DNA of 24,000 bases, taken from Trabulsiella guamensis ATCC 49490. Its GTDB lineage: Bacteria > Pseudomonadota > Gammaproteobacteria > Enterobacterales > Enterobacteriaceae. The notes beneath the pieces were generated by a model. That model had not been told where the DNA came from. It worked only from the letters and a program-made list of their open reading frames with translations, and did no database searches. The stretch lies in assembly GCF_000734965.1 (NCBI RefSeq), contig NZ_JMTB01000095.1, positions 33,056-57,055 of the forward strand, given 5' to 3'. The position numbers were made by a program, and so were the translations under genes. Every line of letters begins with the position of its first letter. Positions within the stretch are counted from its first letter, which is position 1. This document shows, piece after piece, positions 1,966-12,738 of this stretch.

Positions 1966-2748
1966 TTATGCGTCGTCTTCGTCCTGCATGATGGCACTGC
2001 GACCACCGTCCATCACGATAGTGGTACCGGCGATGAATCCGGCGTTCTCACTGGCTAAATAGAGACATAGCTCGCCGACCTCTTCAGGCCGCCCGATGCG
2101 CCCGACCGGGTGTTTTTTGATGGTCTTTTCGCGTGCCAGTCGCGCATCCGGATGGGCATCAAACCACGCCTGGTTGCCGTCCGTATCGATAAACCCTGGC
2201 GCGATGCCCACGGTGCGGATCTCTGGCCCCCACTCAATCGTCAGGCTTTGTACCAGGGACAGTAATGCGCGTTTGCTGATGTTATAAGGCGCGCAACCGG
2301 GCATAGTAGAAAACGCGTGGTTGGAGGTCATTATCAGGATCACGCCGCGGCTTTTCTGCAACGCCGGACGCGCACATTTCGCCAGATACCAGTGCGAACG
2401 CAGATTCAGGTCGAAATTTCGTGACCAGTCGCTTTCGTCGCAATCAATGCCTTTGAATACATTTTTTCCGGCGTTTGACACCAGTACATCAATGCGGCCA
2501 AACCGCTGCTCCGCCTCGCTGATAAACTGTTTGATCTGTTCCGTCTGCGTGACATCCACGGAATGATAGAAAAAGCGCTCCGGCCAGTCAGCCAGCATTT
2601 TCTGCGCCTGCGGCGCGTTGCTCAGCGCGGAAAAAGCGCAGCCAATCACAATGTCGCCGTGGTGCAGAAAGGTCTCTGCAATTGCCTGACCAATCCCCTG
2701 GCTGGCCCCTGTCACGATAACGACGCGGGGGGTTTTCTGTTGCATCAT
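1966..2748 (-). CDS. Classical short-chain dehydrogenase/reductase, candidate sugar 1-dehydrogenase (or 2-keto-3-deoxy-acid dehydrogenase)
   Basis: Motifs: cofactor TGASQGIG, NAG motif VSNAGKN, catalytic S...YNISK, C-terminal IAGTTIVMDGG. The start was trimmed from the ORF-track start (2811) to ATG 2748. That ATG has a GGGAG Shine-Dalgarno 5 nt upstream and lies 10 nt after the stop of the preceding gene. Confidence 0.85.
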   Translation of the reverse strand: MMQQKTPRVVIVTGASQGIGQAIAETFLHHGDIVIGCAFSALSNAPQAQKMLADWPERFFYHSVDVTQTEQIKQFISEAEQRFGRIDVLVSNAGKNVFKGIDCDESDWSRNFDLNLRSHWYLAKCARPALQKSRGVILIMTSNHAFSTMPGCAPYNISKRALLSLVQSLTIEWGPEIRTVGIAPGFIDTDGNQAWFDAHPDARLAREKTIKKHPVGRIGRPEEVGELCLYLASENAGFIAGTTIVMDGGRSAIMQDEDDA

Positions 2749-2758
2749 ACCTGCTCCC

Positions 2759-3688
2759 TTAGCGGTGATTACCCGCAGTGGATAAATGAAACTGAGAAAT
2801 AAACTGGTCAATCAGCGCGTTATCTTCCGCGCTCAGATGCCAGCCAGGACGGCGGCAGTAATCGCTGACAATAATTCCGCGCCGCGTCAGGATCGTTTTT
2901 TCTACCTGAATGATATATTCGCAGTGGCTCATCCAGCGCTGGATGTACGGCAGCATCGCCTGATGCAGTGCCTGCGCCTGATCGCTCTCATCCGCCAGCC
3001 AGTGGCGATAAATCCGGGTATAGATTTCAGTAAATGAGCAACCCGGCATCACGCCCTTGCCGCCAGCCTCAAGCATTTGCAGCATGTACAGCCCGGCATA
3101 GCCATTCAGCACGCTGGCCTGCGGCGCCCGGGCGAGAAACTCGCGGGTGTAAGCGACGGGCGGATTGCATTCGATTTTAAACACCGCATGCGGATAACGG
3201 GACGCCACCGCAGCCAGCTGTTCCGGGGTGATGGCGAGCCCGGTTTCGCCGGGTGCGTACTGCACCATCACCGGAATATCGACCGCTTCCAGCACAGCGA
3301 AAATATGTGCCTGAATGGCCTGCGCGTCCGGCTGTAGAAAAAACGGCGGCAGCAGCATTAACGCATCTGCGCCCAGATCAGCGTAATAACGGGCTCGTTT
3401 TACCGCCAGTTCGGTGCTGTGATCGGTGACCGACATCGCCCGATACAACGTACTACCCGCCAGCGTACTGACGAACATCTGCGCCAGCCGCTCGCGCTCG
3501 CGATCGTCAAGTTTTGGGAATTCACTGGCAATGCCAAACAGCGTGGCGCCCTGCGTGCCGGTTAAGGCCAGATGTTCAAGCAGCGCGACAAAACTGCGCT
3601 CGTCGATCTCCCCGTCCGGGGTAAACGGCATGGCGACAATCGGATTGACGCCAACAATTTCGCTGGCCTTATAGTGCATGCTCATCAC
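2759..3688 (-). CDS. DHDPS/N-acetylneuraminate-lyase family class I aldolase or dehydratase (2-keto-3-deoxy-sugar-acid enzyme)
   Basis: About 308 aa. Family-like motifs are GIASE (position of GxxGE), QYAP (Tyr of YNxP) and AVFKIE (candidate Schiff-base Lys). The start is GTG 3688 or ATG 3685, and both overlap the dehydratase stop TGA 3685-3687, indicating translational coupling. Confidence 0.8.
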
Positions 3689-5394
3689 GCATCCTCCCCG
3701 TCTGCCAGCACCGCGCCCTGCGCCGCAGGCAGCGCCCAGCGACGATAGAGACGCAGAAAACCGCGCGGTACCGCTTTATTGACTGGCTGCCAGTACGCAC
3801 GGCGTGCAGACAGTACTGCTTCATCAACGAGCAGCATCAGCGTACGACCGGGGATATCAATCGACACCTCGTCGCCATTCTCAATCAGCCCCAGCGTACC
3901 GCCGTCGATCGCTTCCGGTGAAATATGCCCGACAAACAGCCCACGATTAGAGCCGGAAAAACGACCGTCGGTAATCAACGCGCAACTGTCGGAAAGCCCC
4001 ATGCCTTCGAGTGATTTCATAGGACGGTACATTTCCGGCATTCCCGGCCCGCCTTTCGGCCCTTCGTAGCGCAACACCAGCACGCTGCCAGGCTGAATAC
4101 GCCCTGACATGATCGCAGTAACCGAATCGTCTTCGCTGTTAAACACCACCGCGGGACCGCGGAATGTCATTAAATGTTCCGGCACCGCAGCGGGTTTCAC
4201 CACGCAGCCCAGCGGCGAGAGATTGCCATGTAAGACGGCGACGCCCGCTTCGTTACGTACCGGGATCGCCAGCGTCTGGATCACCTCCGGTCGGCGGGTA
4301 CGCTGACCTTCCGCCAGCAACTGGCCTTTGGTTTTGCCGACAACAGTTAATGCATTCGGGCGCATCAGCGCGGCAATTTCATGTTCGACCGCCGGCACGC
4401 CGCCCGCCTCGTAGAAATCGATCATGTCGTATTCCGATGCCGGGTAGAGCGAGGCCACCAGCGGCACCCGATGGCTGAGCGCATCAAACGTCGCGAGCGG
4501 CAGATGCCCCAGTTCCGCTTCGTAGTGAATCGCCTGCAAGTGAAGAATGGCATTGGTGGAACCGCCCGTGGCTAACAGATACACCATGGCGTTGTGCAGC
4601 GCGTCCGGGGTGATAATCTGCCGCGCATTGACGCCATCGCGTACCAGCCTGACCGCCTGACGCCCGGATTCCAGCGCGCACTCACGGCGGGCGGTGGAAA
4701 CCGCAGGCAACATGCTGCTGCCGGGCAGACTCATGCCGAGCACTTCAGCGATGGCGCACATGGTATTGGCAGTACCGTACATCGTGCAGGAGCCCGGCCC
4801 CGGCTCGGCGATATCTTCGATATGCGCAAATTCGGCGGCGGTGATTTCGCCGCGTGCTTTCCAGCCCACCGCTTCCGTGACGATATTGCCGTCCCAGTGT
4901 TTGCCTTTGTATTCCGCCGGATACATAGGGCCGCCATTAACCATAATCGCCGGGATATCCAGCCGTGCCGCCGCCATCAGCATCGCAGGGACGATTTTGT
5001 CGCACGAGCCCAGCAGTACCATGCCGTCGAAACGGTGCGCACGCATCATGGTTTCGATAGAAGCGGCAATCACTTCACGCGCGGCAAGGATATAACGCAT
5101 CCCGAGATGCCCTTCGGCGATCCCGTCGCAGGGCGCGATGGTGCCAAACACCATGCCAACGCCGCCCGCCTCTTCAATGCCCTGTAACACCTTTGCGGTG
5201 AGCTCATTCAGATTCACGTGCCCGGCGGTGGCGTTGGTGTAACTGTTCACTACAGCGATCACCGGACGGCGTAGCTGTTCATCCGTATGCCCCATCGATT
5301 TATACAGCGCACGTTTCAGCGCGCCGCTGTCTCCTTCGAGGATTGGGTTGAAATGCGTGCCGCAGCTGGCACATCCTCCACATTCACTCTTCAT
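3685..5394 (-). CDS. IlvD/Edd-family sugar-acid dehydratase (pentonate/hexonate dehydratase type)
   Basis: 569 aa with an ATG start at 5394. Family blocks resemble E. coli IlvD: [43 protein letters not shown]. Three Cys in PCDG / GSCDK / [12 protein letters not shown] match the pattern of the [2Fe-2S]-type pentonate dehydratases. Confidence 0.88.
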
Positions 5395-5411
5395 AACGTT
5401 CTCTTTAGCGT

Positions 5412-6764
5412 TTAGCGATAATTACTGGCAGCATCAGGCTGCGCGGTGGGGTGTTCAGGTGTTCGGTGGCGCGTTGGATTTGCCAGTCGCGCAGGCAGAG
5501 CCAGGATCAGCGGGGCGCAAAGCAACAAGAATCCCGCCAGGATATACAGACCGATATCGGTGCTGCCGGTGGTGTCTTTCAGCCAGCCGAGCACGGTAGG
5601 CCCGAAGAAACCGGCGAGGTTACCCACCGAGTTCACCAGCGCAATGCCCGCCGCGGCCGCCGTGCCGGAAAGCATGGCCCCGGGCAGGCTGATATAGGTG
5701 GGGATCAGTGCAAGGGTGCCGGACATGGCGACGCAGATCCATGCCATCATCCAGAAGGTTGAACCACTGCAATATGCGCTCAGCGTCAGCCCGACACAGC
5801 CGATAACAGCCGGAATAGCGATATGCCAGCGACGCTCCTGTCTGACGTCAGAATGGCGGCTGTTCCACACCATAAACGCGGCACCAAATACATAGGGCAG
5901 TGCCGCCAGCAGACCAATCAGGAGATCGTCGCTGACACCGGAGCTTTTAATGATCGACGGCAACCAGAAATTAATGCCGTAGTAACCGATGTTGAAACTG
6001 AAAAACACCAGCGCCAGCAGCCAGACGTAGCCGTTGCTGAACATCGCTTTCAGACTGCTGTCGACCTTGCCATGGCTGGCCTGTTCGCGATTGCCGGCAT
6101 CTTTCTCCAGGTCATTGAGGATCAGCTGTTTTTCATCATTGCTGAGCCATTTTGCAGATTTCACATCGTTATCAAGGTAGCGTAACACCACGAACGCCAG
6201 CAGAAATGACGGTACGGCTTCCACCAGGAACAGCCATTGCCAGTTGTGCAGGCCGCTAACATCTTCAAACAACTTGAGAATCAGGCCTGAGAGCGGACTG
6301 CCGATAATCGTCGACAATGGCGTCACCAGGATAAACAACCCCAGCGTGCGCGCTGAGCGCCAGGAGGGGAACCACAGCGTCAGATAAAAAACGATGCCAG
6401 GAAAGAATCCGGCTTCCGCTACGCCGAGCAGGAAACGCAGTACGTAAAACTGCGTTGGTGTGGTAACAAACATCATCCCAGCCGACAGTACCGCCCAGGT
6501 CACCATAATGCGGGCAATCCAGAAGCGCGGCCCGAAGCGCTGCATCAGCAAGTTGCTCGGTAGTTCGAAGAGAAAGTAGCCGATGAAAAAAATCCCTGCG
6601 CCGAGGCCGTACACCGTCTCACTGAAATTCAGCGCATCCTGCATATGCAGCTTGGCAAAACCGACGTTCACGCGATCGAGATAGGCAAAGAAATAGCACA
6701 GGATCAGAAACGGTATTAGTCGCCGGGTCACTTTGCGGTACACCTGATTTTCATGAATTTTCAT
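5412..6764 (-). CDS. MFS transporter, anion:cation symporter (ACS) family, candidate sugar-acid/H+ symporter (TtuB/DgoT-like)
   Basis: 450 aa and multi-TM. The N-terminal signature [31 protein letters not shown]...[10 protein letters not shown] is typical of ACS-family acid transporters. It starts 2 nt after the stop of the upstream gene. Confidence 0.85.
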
Positions 6765-6766
6765 AC

Positions 6767-8200
6767 TCAGAGGCTCCGTTCAGTGGTAATGACGCTGTGG
6801 GTATGCGGCGTCTGCCCGATATGGCGCAGTGGCGCACCGCGCATCAGGTTGCGTTCAATGTTTTCCAGCGAGATGTTTTTTGTTTCCGGGACGAAGATCA
6901 GTGTCAGTACGATGCATACCACGTTCAGCAGGGCGTACAGCCAGAAGGTGTTCGGACTGCCGATGGTGTCGATGAGCGTCAGGAAGGTGGCGCCGATCAT
7001 CATATTAGCGATCCAGTTCGCCATCGTTGAACAGGTGACACCGAAATCACGTCCAGCCAGTGGCTGGATTTCCGAGCACAATACCCAGATCAACGGCCCG
7101 GCGCTCATCGCAAAACCGGTGATGAAGATCAGCAGTACCGCCACTGCGACATACTGCTCCGCCCCTGCGCTGATACCGCTGTAAAACAGATAACCGAGCA
7201 GTCCCATGCAAACCGCCATCACGGAGAAACCGAGTTTGAGGATCGGTTTGCGCCCCCAGCGATCCACCAGACCGATGGCGATAAAGGTCGCCAGCACGTT
7301 AGTCAGCCCGGCAATTACCGTGCCCCACATCTGTTCGCGGGTGGTGGTGAAACCGGCAATTTCAAAGATTTTTGGCGCGTAATACATGATGACGGTCATG
7401 CCAGTGAACTGCTGCATAAACTGCAACAGCACACCGAGATACGTTGAGCGACGGAAATGCGGGTTATGGCGGAACAACTGCAGGCCGCGCTGTTTCATCT
7501 TCACACTTTCGCGGATTTGCGCCAGTTCCTCACGCGCTTCCTGATCGCTGTTACGCAGCAATTTCAGCACCTTCGCCGCCAGTTCATGACGATCTTTCAT
7601 CGCCAGCCAGCGCGGACTTTCAGGCAGCGTTAATACGCCGATGAACAGCACCAGCGCCGGGAACGTGATGATACCCAGCATCCAGCGCCAGTGACCGCCC
7701 GCGCTGAACGCGGTATCAGAAAGGAACGCCGCCAGAATGCCGATAGTAATCATCAACTGGTACAGAGAAATCATGCTACCGCGAATGCGTTCCGGCGCGA
7801 TTTCAGAGAGATAAAGCGGTGCAGTAAATGACGCGACGCCCACCGCCAGCCCGAGAATAAAGCGTGAAATGACCAGCACTGAGAGAGCTGGCGCCATCGC
7901 ACAACCCACAGAACCCACCACGAACAGCAGCGCGCCGATCAGCAGGCTTTTCCGCCGTCCCAGCGACGACGACATCGGACCACTGCACAACGCGCCCAGC
8001 GCGGCGCCGAACATCATCACGCTGACCACCACTTCCTGACTGTGGCTGCTGAGCGTAAATTCCTGAGCAAGAAACGGCAGCGCGCCGGCGATAACACCCA
8101 TATCAAGACCAAACAGCAGTCCGGCCAGCGCAGCGAGAAAACAAACGAGGATCGTTTGCCGGTTTGTATTTACTGGTGAAGTCAATGTACTCATCGTCAT
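6767..8200 (-). CDS. MFS sugar porter, paralogue of galactose/H+ symporter GalP
   Basis: 477 aa with long identical blocks to E. coli GalP by recall: FLAALAGLLFGLD.GVIAGALPF, LGLAVGVAS.TAPLYLSEIAPE.IRGSMIS.YQLMITIGIL, VIMYYAPKIFE.AG, GLVDRWGRKP, GPLIWVLCSEIQPL.GRDFG, PETK..SLE.IERNLM. The true start may be the second ATG (8194), which has better AAGG spacing. Confidence 0.9.
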   Translation of the reverse strand: MTMSTLTSPVNTNRQTILVCFLAALAGLLFGLDMGVIAGALPFLAQEFTLSSHSQEVVVSVMMFGAALGALCSGPMSSSLGRRKSLLIGALLFVVGSVGCAMAPALSVLVISRFILGLAVGVASFTAPLYLSEIAPERIRGSMISLYQLMITIGILAAFLSDTAFSAGGHWRWMLGIITFPALVLFIGVLTLPESPRWLAMKDRHELAAKVLKLLRNSDQEAREELAQIRESVKMKQRGLQLFRHNPHFRRSTYLGVLLQFMQQFTGMTVIMYYAPKIFEIAGFTTTREQMWGTVIAGLTNVLATFIAIGLVDRWGRKPILKLGFSVMAVCMGLLGYLFYSGISAGAEQYVAVAVLLIFITGFAMSAGPLIWVLCSEIQPLAGRDFGVTCSTMANWIANMMIGATFLTLIDTIGSPNTFWLYALLNVVCIVLTLIFVPETKNISLENIERNLMRGAPLRHIGQTPHTHSVITTERSL

Positions 8201-8219
8201 GCCTTGAGGGTAAAAGGAA

Positions 8220-9071
8220 TTAAAGACGGAACCGGCGAGCGGGCTGGCCCGTCATCGTTGTGGTTATTTTGAGTAGTGCGCCGTCAATGGCCTGCGGCTG
8301 GCGCAGCCCGTCACGAGCGGAAGTAATGTAGAGGTCGTTGAGCGTGTCACCGCCAAAGGTGCAATTGCTCGGCTGACGCACCGGCAGCGCCAGCGCGCCA
8401 GTTTCTTCTGGCGACGCGTGGCCGAGATCGCAGTACACCAGCTTCGCATCGCCCCAGCGGGCGTTGATAAGCCAGCCATCGCGGGTCAGCGATGAGCCGT
8501 CAGGTGTTCCCCCGACCAGATAGCGCTGTTGAATGTTCAGTGAGCCACTGGCATAAGCCGCACGGTAGAAACAGCCGTTAAGCGAATCCGCAAACCAGAT
8601 CTCGTCCTGCCACCAGATCAGCGTGTTAGGCACCCATTGCGCCGTCAGCAGCTTTTGCGGCCTCGCATGTGGCCCTGCGAGACGATACCAGCAGCCCACT
8701 TGCCGTTCGGCGTTCACATCCATTGAGCTGAACCACAACGCGCCATCCGGTGCGATAGCGGCTTCGTTTGGTCGGGTGTCGCGGGCTTCCGGCCAGTCGC
8801 AAAGCGGCGTGAAACGCGAGCTTTCGTAGTCATACAGCGCAATGCCCGTCTGGCTCACCACCAGAAACCGCCCGGCGTCTTCGGTCAGCAGCACGGCGCT
8901 GGTGAAATCCGGCATGTCACGGACTTCGATACGGGTAGCGTCCTTCGGCCAGTAGCGCAGCAGCTTTCCTGCCACGATATCCACCCACAGCAAAGAGTGG
9001 CTGCGCTCGCACCACACCGGGGTTTCTCCCAGTTGAGCGCGGTAATCGCCAATGACGTGAATCGGGTTCAT
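8220..9071 (-). CDS. SMP-30/gluconolactonase/LRE-family sugar lactonase
   Basis: 283 aa with family blocks GETPVW...LLWVDI, PNEAAIAPDGALWFSSM, TPDGSSLTRDGWL and CTFGGDTLNDLYITSA. The start was trimmed to ATG 9071, which has GGGGAG 7 nt upstream and lies 4 nt after the dgoA-like stop. Confidence 0.87.
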   Translation of the reverse strand: MNPIHVIGDYRAQLGETPVWCERSHSLLWVDIVAGKLLRYWPKDATRIEVRDMPDFTSAVLLTEDAGRFLVVSQTGIALYDYESSRFTPLCDWPEARDTRPNEAAIAPDGALWFSSMDVNAERQVGCWYRLAGPHARPQKLLTAQWVPNTLIWWQDEIWFADSLNGCFYRAAYASGSLNIQQRYLVGGTPDGSSLTRDGWLINARWGDAKLVYCDLGHASPEETGALALPVRQPSNCTFGGDTLNDLYITSARDGLRQPQAIDGALLKITTTMTGQPARRFRL

Positions 9072-9075
9072 GGCA

Positions 9076-9723
9076 TTACTCCCCGACGCTGCGCCAGGCC
9101 TGCTGATAGGCCATTGCACAGGCACGGAGTTGCGTCATGCTCATTCCTGCCTGATACAAACCGCCACCGAGCCCGAAACCGTTCGCGCCTGCCTGGACGT
9201 AACTCTGCATTTGCTGTGCGTCCGGCTGAATACCGCCTACCGGCAGACAGGCGACATCAGCCGGTAATACCGCGCGGAAAGCTTTCACCAGTGCGGGCGA
9301 AACCTGTTCGGCAGGAAAGAATTTCAGCGCGCTGGCTCCGGCGTGCAGCGCGGCAAACGCCTCGCTGGGGGTCATGATCCCCGGCAGGCTGAGCAGCCCT
9401 CTCTCACGGGTATGGCGAATCACCTGTTTGTCGCAGTTGGGGGAAATAATCAGTTGCCCGCCGCACTCCGCCACGCGATCGACCTGTTCTGTCGTCAGTA
9501 CCGTGCCCGCGCCAACGTATGCCCGACCGTTGACCGCATCGCACATCAGGCGGATGGATTCGTACGGCGACGGGCTGTTAAGCGGGACTTCCAGCCAGTG
9601 GAAGCCGCATGAGAGCAATATCTCCGCAGCATGCTGCGCATCGGGCGGCGTGATGCCCCGCAGAATGGCAATCAGTGGCAGCGGCTCATCCTGCCAGCGG
9701 GCATAAAAATGTTCCGGGTTCAT
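9076..9723 (-). CDS. dgoA: 2-dehydro-3-deoxy-6-phosphogalactonate (KDPGal) aldolase, DgoA-like
   Basis: 215 aa, alignable by eye over its full length to E. coli DgoA: PLIAILRGITP, EVPLNSP (catalytic Glu), GAGTVL..EQVD, ALKFFP (Schiff-base Lys), VGGI.P. The start ATG 9723 forms an ATGA overlap with the dgoK-like stop. Confidence 0.9.
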   Translation of the reverse strand: MNPEHFYARWQDEPLPLIAILRGITPPDAQHAAEILLSCGFHWLEVPLNSPSPYESIRLMCDAVNGRAYVGAGTVLTTEQVDRVAECGGQLIISPNCDKQVIRHTRERGLLSLPGIMTPSEAFAALHAGASALKFFPAEQVSPALVKAFRAVLPADVACLPVGGIQPDAQQMQSYVQAGANGFGLGGGLYQAGMSMTQLRACAMAYQQAWRSVGE

Positions 9724-10622
9724 GATGTTTTCTCCTGAATCAGTGAACGCAGCAGGGCAAGGCCGCGTAAAAAACAGCTGTCGCCATCCACGGCGGTCAG
9801 CGTCAGTCCAGTAACTTCTGCCGCCCGTAGATAACGCGCCGTCAGTGCGGGCGATCCCACCACCCACGCAGGCACTGCGACATCAACCTCCGCCAGTTCG
9901 TAACCAATCAGCAAACCGGAGAGATAGCTGTGGATGTGTTCCGCTGCCACGTCACCCATCAGGCGGCGCGTGCGCGCAGAAAAAATCAGGTGGCTGAACG
10001 GGGTGTTCTGAGAGGCGGTTTCGACGCCGAAGACAAAGCTGGCATCGTGCGGAACTTGCTGCGGCAGGTCGCGACCCAACAGCGATTGTTTGCACAGCAG
10101 GGAAAACAACTCTCCGGTCATAAAAGTGGAGAAATCGATAATTTCGCCGTGGTGCATCCGGGCGTGTTTGCTGTGCGTTCCAGGAAGCAGGGCAAGGTGG
10201 TTTTCCGCCGGATGCATCGCCACCAGACCCAATAACTGGATCTCTTCGCCGCGCATCACATCCGGCTGGCCATAGCGGCTGGTGCCATTCACGCCAGGAA
10301 TGATCCACGCCGGGCTACCCCACGGCGTCTGAAAGGTACAGGAGCCGTCAAAAAGATCGCCAGCGCCAGCAGGCAGCGATGCATAAGGCACGTTTTTCCA
10401 GCCCTGCTGCGAACCGACCATCCCGGCCATGACGATCGGCAGATGAGGTGTTGCTGCAAGCCACGGTGACAGCAGACATTGCAAGGCGGCCGCGAACTGC
10501 GCTTCCTGTACTGACAGCAAGCCACAGGGCTCAGACAGAGAATCAATAACCTGATTATTTTCCAATAGAAAGGCACGAAAGTTAGTCGTACCCCAGTCGA
10601 TGGCGATCCAGTTGTTTTTCAT
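9720..10622 (-). CDS. dgoK: 2-dehydro-3-deoxygalactonokinase, DgoK-like
   Basis: 300 aa with blocks shared with E. coli DgoK: IAIDWGTTNFRA, VMAGMVGSQQGWK..PY, VMRGEEIQL, PGTHSKH, MTGEL, SGLLIG.E, LTARY. The start was trimmed to the first in-frame ATG (10622). The ORF-track start at 10658 is a TTG inside the operator region. Confidence 0.9.
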   Translation of the reverse strand: MKNNWIAIDWGTTNFRAFLLENNQVIDSLSEPCGLLSVQEAQFAAALQCLLSPWLAATPHLPIVMAGMVGSQQGWKNVPYASLPAGAGDLFDGSCTFQTPWGSPAWIIPGVNGTSRYGQPDVMRGEEIQLLGLVAMHPAENHLALLPGTHSKHARMHHGEIIDFSTFMTGELFSLLCKQSLLGRDLPQQVPHDASFVFGVETASQNTPFSHLIFSARTRRLMGDVAAEHIHSYLSGLLIGYELAEVDVAVPAWVVGSPALTARYLRAAEVTGLTLTAVDGDSCFLRGLALLRSLIQEKTS

Positions 10623-10625
10623 ATC

Positions 10626-10658
10626 ATGTAATACAAATAAATTAATCTTGTAATACAA
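10626..10658. promoter_or_regulatory. Two GntR/FadR-type palindromic operators (DgoR-box-like) upstream of the dgoK-like gene
   Basis: 10648-10658 is TTGTAATACAA, a perfect 5-1-5 palindrome. 10626-10636 is ATGTAATACAA, matching at 10 of 11 positions. Centres are 22 bp apart, about two helical turns. They lie in the only AT-rich gap of the operon, directly downstream of the GntR-family gene. Confidence 0.6.
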
Positions 10659-10660
10659 GA

Positions 10661-10703
10661 ATGCTAGAGCAAAGGGAAATCGCGATCTGTGAAGCAGATC
10701 GAA
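10661..10703 (-). promoter_or_regulatory. Candidate CRP-dependent promoter for the catabolic genes (-10 TAGCAT plus a CRP-like site), or alternatively a weak hairpin
   Basis: On the minus strand TAGCAT (10666-10661) is a -10-like hexamer. TGTGA-agcaga-TCGAA (10688-10703) has one perfect CRP half-site and is centred 41.5 bp from the predicted +1 (~10654). The same stretch contains a 7-bp inverted repeat, CGATCTG-N5-CAGATCG (10683-10701). Confidence 0.35.
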
Positions 10704-10720
10704 ATTACATCAACAGGGGA

Positions 10721-11452
10721 TCAGACGATCAGATCGAACATCTCAGGACGATCCTGCCAGATGCGCTTGCGCGCGGCATTCAGAAGAATAGTGCGCATTT
10801 GCTGGCGCGCCTGGTCGGGCTTTTTGAGACGAATGGCTTCCAGCAAGAGATAATGGTCGTCCACCGCCGTTCGGGTCTGACGCACATCTTTTTCCAGCGT
10901 CTGGCGGAATGAAAGCGCCATCGCCGCCGACAGCGCATTGCCAAGCGTCAACAAAAACGGGTTATGGGTGGCACGCAGCAGGGCATGGTGAAACGCCATG
11001 TCGCCCTCTTCAAACACATCGCCCTTCGCATTGAGTTGCCCCTGACGCATGAGCTGGAGCGCATCTTCCATCGCCGCCAGATCGTGCCCGGTCGCGTTCA
11101 TCGCGGCGAGCGTGGCGACGTTCGGTTCAAAGACCAGACGCGTCACCATCAGCTGTTCCACCAGTTGTGGATCCATCTCGCCTTCTGCCAGCCAGGTGAG
11201 CATATCGGCGTCGAGCAGGTTCCAGAGTTCGCGTGGGTTTACCATCGAACGTTTTTTCGCCTGAATGGAGATAAGCCCTTTCGCCGCCAGAAACTGCAAT
11301 GCATTACGCACCGAGGTGCGTGAGACACCGTACGCCATCGCCAGTTCATTTTCGCCAGGCAGCGCCAGCCCCGGTTTAAGATCACCGTGGATCATGCGGT
11401 TAGCGAGGCGTTGGGTCAGAGACTCAGCAATAGACGTTTGTGGTGCTTTCAT
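10721..11452 (-). CDS. GntR-family transcriptional regulator, FadR/FCD subfamily, DgoR-like
   Basis: 243 aa from ATG 11452; the ORF-track start at 11527 is probably too long. It has an N-terminal winged-HTH (LPGENELAMAYGVSRTSVRNALQFLAAKGLI) and a C-terminal helical FCD-like domain. The PRE.WN.LD.D.L.W....DP.L block resembles E. coli DgoR. Confidence 0.85.
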   Translation of the reverse strand: MKAPQTSIAESLTQRLANRMIHGDLKPGLALPGENELAMAYGVSRTSVRNALQFLAAKGLISIQAKKRSMVNPRELWNLLDADMLTWLAEGEMDPQLVEQLMVTRLVFEPNVATLAAMNATGHDLAAMEDALQLMRQGQLNAKGDVFEEGDMAFHHALLRATHNPFLLTLGNALSAAMALSFRQTLEKDVRQTRTAVDDHYLLLEAIRLKKPDQARQQMRTILLNAARKRIWQDRPEMFDLIV

Positions 11453-11544
11453 GGCGTTCCGGGCGAAAGAGTGGAAAGGCTTGTCGGCAACATCATATAC
11501 GCTACGGGCGCAGGAAAGAACCCGCATTGCCGGAGGTTATCATT

Positions 11545-12738
11545 TCAGGCTTCCACCAGCGCCTGCGCACATGCCCAGGCGGACGACCATGCCCACTGGA
11601 AGTTGTAGCCGCCGAGCCAGCCGGTGACGTCCATCACTTCGCCGATGAAATAGAGGCCGGGCACGTTGCGGGCTTCCATGGTGCGGGAGGAGAGTTCGTT
11701 GGTGTCGACGCCGCCAAGGGTCACTTCGGCGGTGCGATAGCCTTCGGTGCCATTAGGCTGGACGCGCCATTGGGTGAGTGTTTCCACCAGCGTTTGTTGG
11801 TCGCGCATGTTGAGCTGTTTCAGCGTGACGTCAGGGATCTGCCCGAGCTGCTGCAGACACTCTACCAGCCGTTTTGGCAGTTGCATCGCCAGCGTATTTT
11901 TCAGGCTCTGATTGGGGTGCGCCTCGCGCTGCTCATTGAGGAAGGCATCCGGATCACTGTCGGGCAGCAGATCGATGCTGACGAACTCACCAGGCTGCCA
12001 GTAGCTGGAGATTTGCAGCACCGCCGGGCCGGAAAGCCCGCGGTGGGTGAAGAGCAGGTTTTCGCGAAAGACTGTGCCATCTTCGGCGGTGATTACCGCG
12101 GGCACCGATACGCCGGAAAGGACCTGCAATTGTTCGAGCAACGGTTTATGCAGGGTAAACGGCACCAGACCCGCCCGCGTCGGCAGCACCTTGAGGCCGA
12201 ACTGCTCAGCGATTTTATATCCGAATGGTGTGGCACCCAGACCTGGCATCGACAGCCCACCGCTGGCAATCACCAGTTTTTTCGCCGTTACTGTCTCGCC
12301 ATTCAACTGCAGCGTGTAGCCGTCGTCGTCGCGTTCAACACTGAGGATTTCGGTGCGCAGGCGCAGCGTGACGTTGCCCTTTTCGCACTCGGTCACCAGC
12401 ATGCTCACGATTTGCTCTGCGGAATCATCGCAAAACAACTGCCCCAGCGTTTTTTCATGCCAGGCAATGCCATGCTTTCCTACCAGATCGATAAAATCCC
12501 ACTGGGTGTAGCGCGCCAGCGCTGATTTGCAGAAATGAGGGTTCTGGCAGAGATAAGCGGCAGGTTCAACGTACAGGTTGGTAAAGTTGCAGCGACCGCC
12601 GCCGGACATCAGAATCTTGCGGCCCGGCTTCTTGCCATTATCGACCAGCAGCACGCGGCTACCCGCCTGCCCCGCCTGCGCTGCGCAAAACATCCCCGCC
12701 GCACCGGCGCCTACCACAATGGCATCAAACCTTTCCAC
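11545..12738 (-). CDS. yhiN: HI0933-like FAD-dependent flavoprotein YhiN
   Basis: 397 aa with the dinucleotide fold DAIVVGAGAAGMF. It is near-collinear with E. coli YhiN by recall. GTG start at 12738 with a GAGGA Shine-Dalgarno 7 nt upstream. Confidence 0.93.
   Translation of the reverse strand: MERFDAIVVGAGAAGMFCAAQAGQAGSRVLLVDNGKKPGRKILMSGGGRCNFTNLYVEPAAYLCQNPHFCKSALARYTQWDFIDLVGKHGIAWHEKTLGQLFCDDSAEQIVSMLVTECEKGNVTLRLRTEILSVERDDDGYTLQLNGETVTAKKLVIASGGLSMPGLGATPFGYKIAEQFGLKVLPTRAGLVPFTLHKPLLEQLQVLSGVSVPAVITAEDGTVFRENLLFTHRGLSGPAVLQISSYWQPGEFVSIDLLPDSDPDAFLNEQREAHPNQSLKNTLAMQLPKRLVECLQQLGQIPDVTLKQLNMRDQQTLVETLTQWRVQPNGTEGYRTAEVTLGGVDTNELSSRTMEARNVPGLYFIGEVMDVTGWLGGYNFQWAWSSAWACAQALVEA

Follow-up and report, generated by a model that had tools for sequence, protein, structure and literature searches.

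A predicted hybrid operon for oxidative sugar and sugar-acid catabolism in Trabulsiella guamensis and its relatives

What route is served by an operon that encodes the kinase and the aldolase of D-galactonate catabolism, has no DgoD, and instead carries a dehydratase of the IlvD/Edd family together with a dihydrodipicolinate synthase (DHDPS)-like protein? The question is raised by nine adjacent genes in a 24,000-nucleotide stretch of the genome of Trabulsiella guamensis ATCC 49490 (contig NZ_JMTB01000095.1, positions 33,056 to 57,055), hereafter the window. A sequence-only reading of the window had proposed an oxidative sugar or sugar-acid operon that joins De Ley-Doudoroff parts (DgoK, DgoA) to Dahms/Weimberg-type parts, namely a short-chain dehydrogenase/reductase (SDR), an SMP-30 lactonase, the IlvD/Edd dehydratase and the DHDPS-family protein, and the protein families confirmed here support that description. 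The operon appears to combine the workings of the De Ley-Doudoroff system with those of a Dahms/Weimberg-type route, and we put at about an even chance the reading that it serves oxidative catabolism of D-galacto-configured aldoses and aldonic acids, with two outlets after the dehydratase, as a horizontally mobile and repressor-controlled unit. The comparisons show the gene set, its conservation and modular build, the family and clade of the products, their active-site signatures and the operator-like boxes; every substrate in this reading, the reaction of the DHDPS-like protein and the repression are what we infer from them.

Organization of the gene cluster

The list of open reading frames (ORFs) of the window contains nine co-directional, tightly packed ORFs between 1966 and 11527, all on the minus strand (Table 1). 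Every junction was re-read on that strand and the close spacing reported earlier holds, as do all nine of the earlier family assignments, each backed by Pfam and NCBIfam. Read on the minus strand, an ATGA at 9720-9723 is common to the DgoK stop and the DgoA start; TGCC (9072-9075) separates the DgoA stop TAA from the lactonase ATG at 9071, and the next three gaps are of 19 nt (8201-8219), 2 nt (6765-6766) and 17 nt (5395-5411). The IlvD stop overlaps the DHDPS-like start within a GTGATGA; the overlap had been recognized, but the range given for it, 3683-3688, is one base short, the 7 nt being 3682-3688. A 10-nt gap with GGGAG inside it (2749-2758) precedes the SDR gene, and a 98-nt gap (10623-10720) lies downstream of the regulator gene. 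Public gene calls on identical DNA give a DHDPS-like protein of 308 amino acids (ATG 3685) and an SDR of 260 amino acids (ATG 2748), and the starts agree. The DHDPS-like protein is 100% identical to one recorded for T. guamensis ATCC 49490, and an exact look-up of the dehydratase returned no entry. The gene arrangement is not due to chance, since the identical order recurs in 18 other species-level genomes.

Table 1. Genes of the operon and operator-like boxes, with window coordinates and the matches that identify them (MFS, major facilitator superfamily; DHAD, dihydroxy-acid dehydratase; NAL, N-acetylneuraminate lyase).
Feature	Position	Strand	Basis
GntR/FadR-family regulator with FCD domain, distant DgoR relative	10721..11452	-	Pfam GntR and FCD; 35% identity to E. 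coli DgoR
Operator-like box 1, TTGTATTACA(A), palindromic, GntR-type	10649..10658		exact match to TTGTANTACA
Operator-like box 2, TTGTATTACA(T)	10627..10636		22 bp from box 1; ends 4 nt before DgoK ATG
DgoK-family 2-keto-3-deoxy-galactonate kinase homologue	9720..10622	-	Pfam PF05035 DGOK 279.6 bits; 37% identity to E. coli DgoK
DgoA-type 2-dehydro-3-deoxy-6-phosphogalactonate aldolase homologue	9076..9723	-	NCBIfam NF006600 269.9 bits vs cut-off 207; 46% identity to E. coli DgoA
SMP-30/gluconolactonase-family lactonase	8220..9071	-	Pfam SGL 161.9 bits; best solved relative SMP-30 protein 7plb, weak, 68.8 bits
GalP-like sugar:H+ symporter	6767..8200	-	NCBIfam sugar-porter subfamily 447 bits vs 237.8
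MFS acid-sugar transporter, anion:cation symporter (ACS) type, not DgoT orthologue	5412..6764	-	TIGR00893 320 bits, below 395 cut-off
IlvD/Edd Fe-S dehydratase, DHAD clade, N-terminal three-cysteine tail	3685..5394	-	Pfam, NCBIfam, solved-structure comparison, alignment
Gln-type DHDPS/NAL-superfamily Schiff-base enzyme, translationally coupled to dehydratase gene	2759..3688	-	DHDPS family 101.8 bits; alignments
SDR, probable aldose 1-dehydrogenase	1966..2748	-	Pfam adh_short_C2; best solved relatives 3vtz (glucose 1-dehydrogenase), 2dtd, 2zk7 (glucose 1-dehydrogenase-related)

A constant core with variable additions

One genome per species was scanned with the dehydratase, and the nine window proteins were mapped on the 80 loci returned and on one further locus (L001) from the E. 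coli plasmid NZ_AP022088.1 (154947-176852). The loci, designated by L numbers, were viewed as ±10-kb stretches, and the 48 whose dehydratase is at least 75% identical to that of the window are referred to as the close loci. The nine genes stand in exact order in 18 of the 48, in Enterobacillus, Lelliottia, Citrobacter, Buttiauxella, Dryocola, Serratia, Budvicia, Hafnia, Rahnella and several metagenome-assembled genomes. A six-gene form (regulator-DgoK-DgoA-acid transporter-IlvD-DHDPS) accounts for 17 more, four have eight genes and lack the lactonase only, three have four genes (regulator-acid transporter-IlvD-DHDPS), and one has the porter and the SDR without DgoK/DgoA. Names on close homologues add Salmonella enterica, Cronobacter, Cedecea and Siccibacter. 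The cluster is widespread though patchy in the Enterobacterales, and the suggestion that it is unusual for an enteric bacterium has to be abandoned, although no close copy is present on any E. coli chromosome among 5,426 complete genomes.

The regulator, the acid transporter and the IlvD-type dehydratase are found in all 48 close loci, and the DHDPS-like gene in 46, both exceptions being truncated contigs. DgoK is present in 43, DgoA in 44, and the porter and the SDR in 24 each; the SDR accompanies the neutral-sugar transporter in related loci. The constant core is formed by the regulator, acid transporter, IlvD-type dehydratase and DHDPS-like protein, and DgoK/DgoA and the porter/SDR/lactonase set are add-ons. 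Four complete close loci and the Succinivibrionaceae forms lack DgoK and DgoA, and the pair of IlvD and DHDPS-like genes occurs without them in L017, L024, L041, L052 and L061. Because L052 has only the SDR, lactonase, IlvD and DHDPS-like genes, and L024, L041 and L061 only the acid transporter, IlvD and DHDPS-like genes, the pair evidently works without DgoK/DgoA. The two genes overlap or abut in every locus examined, and the invariable partner of the dehydratase is this downstream enzyme on the 2-keto-3-deoxy acid, not DgoK/DgoA.

More distant relatives place the dehydratase in other surroundings. Seven species of Vibrionaceae (L046, L048, L050, L055, L058, L060, L062) share the order regulator-DgoK-DgoA-TRAP(PQM)-DgoD-IlvD-DHDPS-like, in which the DgoD is genuine (646 bits against a cut-off of 311) and sits between the TRAP genes and IlvD in all seven, so that one operon houses two different dehydratase families. 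Comparison of the Vibrio TRAP binding protein with solved structures gave generic DctP matches only and no usable ligand. The Succinivibrionaceae loci (L052, L054) have a lactonase-IlvD-SDR-sodium:solute symporter order with divergent regulator and DHDPS-like genes and no DgoK/DgoA. In the Firmicutes, where IlvD is 61-65% identical across the loci, L065 reads sugar ABC transporter-lactonase-SDR-IlvD-RraA-like protein (Pfam Aldolase/RraA family), and L075 has the same lactonase-SDR-IlvD-229-aa layout; this layout looks like a complete non-phosphorylative sugar route with a different final enzyme. From the Vibrionaceae, Succinivibrionaceae and Firmicute contexts we conclude that the dehydratase lineage is dedicated to oxidative sugar catabolism across phyla.

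The window cluster encodes no MR_MLE protein, that is, no enolase-superfamily DgoD, as had been noted previously. It had been argued from this that the IlvD/Edd enzyme must feed DgoK/DgoA; such a connection is plausible but not compelled, because the constant partner of IlvD is the DHDPS-like protein, some loci have no DgoK/DgoA, and the Vibrionaceae have DgoD. Alternatively, the pair of IlvD and DHDPS-like proteins could be a self-contained module that takes a sugar acid with no relation to 2-keto-3-deoxygalactonate (KDGal) through two steps, with DgoK/DgoA merely co-regulated and fed by a DgoD encoded elsewhere. The bona fide DgoD of all seven Vibrionaceae loci, the five loci with the pair and no DgoK/DgoA, and the fact that the regulator type tracks the pair rather than DgoD are all in keeping with this. 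We nonetheless regard it as a minority possibility, since DgoK and DgoA are co-operonic with IlvD as the sole dehydratase in the numbers of close loci given above, and a kinase and an aldolase that had no dehydratase linked to them would be an odd design. In addition, an independent analogue (L091, described below) again has a dehydratase and a DHDPS-like protein together with a kinase and an aldolase of the KDPG type.

A dehydratase of the DHAD clade

The dehydratase belongs to the IlvD/Edd family (PF00920, 372 bits; PF24877, 228 bits), and in an alignment with E. coli YagF and members of the window protein's own clade the Fe-S cluster ligands Cys89, Cys131 and Cys203 and the catalytic Ser480 are invariant. 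It had been assigned to the XylD/AraC/YjhG/YagF type, an assignment that the comparisons contradict: the protein scores 622.2 on the TIGR00110 ilvD equivalog model, just enough to clear its cut-off of 618.15, and stays far below the cut-offs of the L-arabinonate dehydratase model NF009559 (397 against 882) and the YjhG/YagF model TIGR03432 (237 against 808). Its closest solved structures are the DHADs of Synechocystis, M. tuberculosis and Arabidopsis (408-360 bits), and the solved sugar-acid dehydratases score lower (Rhizobium RlArDHT, 298 bits; Caulobacter CcXyDHT, 211 bits). The window protein also lacks the C-terminal histidine that is reported as conserved among enzymes of the RlArDHT type. 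By these measures the dehydratase is to be placed in the true DHAD clade.

Could it then be an ordinary second DHAD for branched-chain amino acid synthesis that lies here by chance? Its score on the ilvD model suggests as much, and RefSeq names the plasmid copy ilvD, yet the score is hardly above the cut-off and the gene is never found beside ilv genes. In the Proteobacteria it lies within sugar-acid operons with the DHDPS-like gene, and the Firmicute copies (L065, L075) sit with a lactonase, an SDR and the RraA-like gene, in L065 also with the sugar ABC transporter. Sugar-acid catabolism is the genomic context of the dehydratase in every locus examined, and we consider a biosynthetic role highly improbable.

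The window protein has a Gly/Cys-rich N-terminal tail at residues 5-11 (window 5362-5382, minus strand), with Cys5, Cys8 and Cys11 followed by a histidine. About 55 gammaproteobacterial orthologues retain the tail as three to four cysteines, with spacing that varies between genera; it is cut to one or two cysteines in Silvimonas and two other betaproteobacterial members. The Firmicute, Spirochaete, Desulfovibrio and two Rhodocyclales-type members lack it altogether, as does E. coli YagF. The three cysteines may form an extra metal or Fe-S-related site.

A glutamine-type member of the DHDPS/NAL superfamily

The best solved relatives of the DHDPS-like protein are an uncharacterised Rhodopseudomonas protein (3dz1) and KdaD, the 2-keto-3-deoxy-L-arabinonate (L-KDA) dehydratase of Azospirillum, at 28% identity each; identity to DapA, NanA and YagE is 16-21%. 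The Schiff-base lysine is present, the Lys of FKIE aligning with KdaD Lys171. In the aldolases a triad of Tyr133, Thr/Ser44 (within GxxGE) and Tyr107 acts as a proton relay, and the whole triad is gone from the window protein, with Thr44 replaced by Ala (GTTGE to GIASE), Tyr107 by Phe and Tyr133 by Gln (E. coli DapA numbering). KdaD residues Gln143, Lys171 and Glu173 (the C3 base) are matched (VQYAP versus VQDAP; FKIE identical), and catalytic or binding roles have been assigned to this Gln, the Lys and the Glu that follows it. The second base of KdaD, which acts at C5 (Glu200 in Azospirillum, Glu201 in Cupriavidus), is missing, DGEEAI being replaced by an invariant NGYAGL whose G-Y is also present in NanA and YagE.

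These features are not peculiar to the window protein. A search of the full library returned 126 full-length 50%-identity cluster representatives nearest to it; a Gln stands at the Tyr133 position in 120 and K-x-E/D is found in 122, and the Glu-Glu of KdaD occurs in none. Membership in the DHDPS family, proposed previously, stands; the accompanying choice between a YjhH/YagE aldolase and an AraD-type dehydratase does not, as neither the aldolase triad nor the Glu200 of KdaD is present. Judged by its residues, the protein fits neither the aldolases of the YagE/YjhH type nor the canonical AraD/KdaD enzymes.

In four distant members (L091, L092, L093 and L098; 41-47% identity), which lie on metagenome and genome contigs in sugar-utilisation loci, the DHDPS-like gene adjoins an enolase-superfamily acid-sugar dehydratase and an SDR. 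Some of the four also include a lactonase, sugar ABC transporters or glycoside hydrolases, and L091 has genes for a PfkB kinase and a KDPG/KHG-family (PF01081) aldolase as well, along with CoA-transferases and enoyl-CoA hydratases. No aldehyde dehydrogenase gene is found in about 60 related loci or beside the homologues in L091-L093 and L098.

The Gln-type enzyme may carry out carbon-carbon cleavage, a reaction to which we assign a probability of about one half. Cleavage is favoured because the pair serves as the terminal module where there is no kinase, because an aldehyde dehydrogenase is never linked to it, because the RraA-like (Aldolase/RraA-family) gene takes the same position in the Firmicutes, and because the motif in the distal part of the pocket is like the one in NanA and YagE.

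Two other reactions have to be considered. The protein could be a KdaD-like dehydratase in a Weimberg-like branch that leads to a 2,5-dioxo acid (alpha-ketoglutarate semialdehyde from L-arabinonate), to be oxidised by an aldehyde dehydrogenase encoded elsewhere. The greater identity to KdaD than to DapA, NanA or YagE, the shared Gln143, Lys171 and Glu173 (FKIE) and the degenerate GxxGE common to both proteins argue in this direction, and an SMP-30 lactonase, an IlvD/Edd enzyme and a DHDPS-family protein are also the families that make up the Azospirillum L-arabinose route. The C5-proton base, however, is here an Ala and the neighbouring Glu a Tyr (in the N-G-Y shared with NanA and YagE), the expected aldehyde dehydrogenase is missing from all the loci named above, and the module is also present in the Succinivibrionaceae (L052, L054), gut anaerobes in which a route to 2-oxoglutarate is less expected; we think a KdaD-like function unlikely, at perhaps one chance in five.

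The second is that the pathway is linear, and that the Gln-type enzyme isomerises the dehydratase product for DgoK, for example by C4 epimerisation through Schiff-base elimination and re-addition or through retro-aldol and aldol steps. Such a role would account for the joint presence of a dehydratase, a DHDPS-like protein, a kinase and an aldolase in three unrelated sets (Enterobacterales, Vibrionaceae and, with PfkB and PF01081, L091), and for a protein that keeps the C3 base and has lost both the aldolase triad and the C5 base of KdaD. To our knowledge, however, no such enzyme is known, enterics already metabolise 2-keto-3-deoxygluconate (KDG) and KDGal, and in L052, L093 and L098, which have neither kinase nor aldolase, the DHDPS-like step can be terminal. 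We regard isomerisation as very improbable.

The regulator and the operator-like boxes

Within the window, TTGTANTACA is matched exactly at two places, both of them boxes of the 98-nt gap. The E. coli DgoR IR1 core is TTGTAGTACAA, from which the boxes differ at the centre base only, and DgoR binds two closely spaced repeats; the window has both a regulator of the GntR/FadR type and a pair of TTGTA(n)TACAA inverted repeats, as would be expected of a DgoR-like regulon. In most related loci, the four-gene and Succinivibrionaceae forms among them, such a box lies shortly before the first catabolic gene, and two boxes with equal spacing are also found in L007, L015, L042 and L059. No RNA family was detected in an Rfam search of the window, a promoter scan returned nothing over shuffled expectation, and a terminator scan found intragenic hairpins only.

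Aligned to DgoR, the regulator keeps Arg102, the Asp146/His150/His195 metal site, Asp184 and Thr180; the substitutions W181L, T191A, R224K, Q173M, R179Q and S221A are read from an alignment at 35% identity and from a docking-based definition of the pocket. Alanine mutants of DgoR at Trp181, Thr191, Arg224 and Arg102 lose D-galactonate binding, and three of these four residues are changed here, Arg102 alone being kept. Most of the same substitutions are present in the Vibrionaceae regulator. The pocket would thereby be less polar, and the effector may be a sugar acid suited to such a pocket, hence probably not D-galactonate itself.

Substrates and a proposed pathway

The porter is 70% identical to E. 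coli GalP over 447 residues and 57% identical to AraE over its C-terminal 410 residues; the acid transporter has 21% identity to E. coli DgoT. The D-galacto-type substrates suggested in the sequence-only reading fit the GalP-like porter and the DgoR-like operator, and a KDGal kinase and a 2-keto-3-deoxy-6-phosphogalactonate (KDPGal) aldolase of the De Ley-Doudoroff type are both present, as far as their sequences tell. Our best guess is that the operon takes D-galactose or D-galactonate together with an analogue that cannot be phosphorylated, for example D-fucose. GalP carries D-fucose, and the 2-keto-3-deoxy product of D-fucose cannot be phosphorylated at C6. Transport by GalP, the block at C6, the less polar pocket of the regulator and the preference of RlArDHT for D-fuconate make D-fucose or D-fuconate attractive as a second substrate, which we put forward as a hypothesis only. 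RlArDHT is a single IlvD/Edd enzyme that prefers D-fuconate and also acts on D-galactonate and L-arabinonate, so that the earlier statement that Rhizobium-type L-arabinonate dehydratases accept D-galactonate and D-fuconate is correct according to the literature. Two other substrate classes were rejected: a sulfosugar pathway of the sulfo-ED type, given that a kinase is present, and a KDO/KDN-type substrate cut first by the DHDPS-like enzyme, given the six-gene forms without a sugar dehydrogenase.

In the two-outlet pathway that we favour, the GalP-like porter would bring in the sugar, the SDR would oxidise it at C1 and the SMP-30 lactonase would open the lactone; alternatively, the MFS acid transporter could import the free aldonate directly. 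The DHAD-clade Fe-S dehydratase would then form a 2-keto-3-deoxy acid. A hexonate-derived product with a free 6-OH would pass to DgoK and DgoA and yield pyruvate and glyceraldehyde-3-phosphate; non-phosphorylatable products, such as those from D-fuconate or L-arabinonate, would be taken by the Gln-type enzyme, most probably to pyruvate and a small aldehyde. The DgoR-like regulator would bind the two TTGTATTACA boxes before dgoK and be released by a sugar acid, probably not D-galactonate.

Several observations weigh against this pathway. The E. coli plasmid locus L001 pairs an insertion sequence (IS)-scarred six-gene form directly with canonical dgoRKADT, a pairing that speaks against the substrate being plain D-galactonate, and the Vibrionaceae versions keep DgoD next to IlvD, such that IlvD may not make KDGal there. 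We found no documented D-galactonate or D-fuconate activity for the DHAD clade. The DHDPS-like protein has lost the proton-relay triad that an aldolase would be expected to use, and its catalytic centre resembles that of KdaD, a dehydratase.

A broader proposal, which we hold tentatively and consider possible but distinctly less probable than the two-outlet pathway itself, is that the operon opens a sugar new to enterics (for example D-fucose/D-fuconate beside D-galactonate) through two unrecognised enzymes, a DHAD-clade dehydratase with a three-cysteine metal site and a Gln-type branch of the DHDPS/NAL superfamily with a new reaction, be it Tyr-independent aldol cleavage, C4 epimerisation or dehydration.

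Relationship to known systems

Among known systems, E. coli dgoRKADT also combines a DgoK kinase, a DgoA aldolase, a GntR/FadR repressor with a metal-binding FCD pocket, two spaced TTGTAnTACAA boxes and an MFS acid transporter. The window operon differs in that an IlvD/Edd enzyme stands in place of DgoD, in its divergent transporter and regulator (21% identity to DgoT; 35% to DgoR, with three of the four D-galactonate-binding residues changed), in the position of the boxes, found after the regulator gene and before dgoK instead of in front of the regulator, and in four extra genes (DHDPS-like, porter, lactonase and SDR).

With AraA-E of the Weimberg L-arabinose pathway of Azospirillum brasilense the operon shares an SMP-30 lactonase and an IlvD/Edd enzyme followed by a DHDPS-family protein with Gln for the aldolase Tyr and K-x-E. 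It differs in the DHAD-clade dehydratase (397 against 882 bits on the L-arabinonate dehydratase model), in having no equivalent of KdaD Glu200 and no semialdehyde dehydrogenase, and in the presence of DgoK/DgoA. The E. coli yagEF and yjhHG loci (Dahms-type D-xylonate) are alike in having neighbouring IlvD/Edd and DHDPS-family genes with an acid transporter, but YagF is only 31% identical to the window dehydratase, and YagE, 21% identical to the DHDPS-like protein, has the full Tyr/Ser-Thr/Tyr triad of which the window protein has none.

The non-phosphorylative Route I L-fucose clusters of Campylobacter jejuni and Veillonella ratti bring together, at one locus with two MFS transporters, an SDR sugar dehydrogenase, a lactonase, a dehydratase for acid sugars and an enzyme of the DHDPS family. 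Their dehydratase and lactonase are of other families, their context is L-galacto, not D-galacto, and they have no kinase/aldolase pair. In the L-glucose pathway of Paracoccus sp. 43P (LgnE, LgnF, LgnG), a dehydratase that is not DgoD supplies KDGal to a kinase and a KDPGal aldolase. LgnE was entertained as an IlvD-type precedent and rejected, as the papers place it in the UxaA/GarD superfamily rather than IlvD/Edd; its upstream chemistry also differs, and it serves as a functional precedent only. A full-text literature search found no characterisation of the cluster described here.

Chromosomal context and mobility

In the window the cluster is flanked by nikE-nikR on one side and yhiN-pitA on the other. 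The ORFs past pitA fit the E. coli uspA-dtpB-rsmJ-prlC-gor backbone in order and size, the order being confirmed as far as dtpB. About 17 kb of unrelated accessory genes lie between nikR and yhiN in E. coli K-12. Since neither nikR nor yhiN adjoins the cluster in any of the 80 related loci, the cluster is an island that occupies different chromosomal sites.

The nikR gene (plus strand) and the SDR gene (minus strand) converge at 1963-1966, where the 2 nt that separate their stop codons leave no room for an intergenic terminator, and the sole terminator-like hairpins near the convergence sit within the opposite gene. Long antisense ORFs inside the dehydratase and yhiN genes, at 4594-5187 (+), 11440-12525 (+) and similar positions, are most likely artefacts of high G+C content.

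Two related loci bear on how the cluster is gained and rearranged. The plasmid with L001 is of conjugative size; its six-gene form reads DgoK-DgoA-MFS-IlvD-DHDPS with a transposase fragment displacing the regulator, and several IS remnants lie nearby. L017, on a contig labelled Pseudomonas lundensis I31, has the same neighbours as Serratia proteamaculans L041, but the porter and the SDR are added; the DNA is probably of Serratia type. Comparison of L017 with L041 shows the sugar module gained or lost at a single chromosomal site.

Implications

If the proposed pathway is right, many Enterobacterales hold an unannotated, transferable route for the oxidation of galactose-type sugars and sugar acids. 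Citrobacter, Serratia, Rahnella, Hafnia and Buttiauxella are among the carriers, as are some Salmonella and Cronobacter, and a copy resides on at least one E. coli plasmid. Such a route would bypass the Leloir and isomerase pathways, and would be relevant to gut and plant niches in which sugar acids affect colonisation. It would also expose two problems of annotation, a sugar-acid dehydratase that pipelines label ilvD, and a large clade of DHDPS-like proteins (120 of the 126 nearest 50%-identity clusters) that have neither the aldolase catalytic Tyr nor an assigned reaction. Both types of enzyme are open to direct test with purified proteins.

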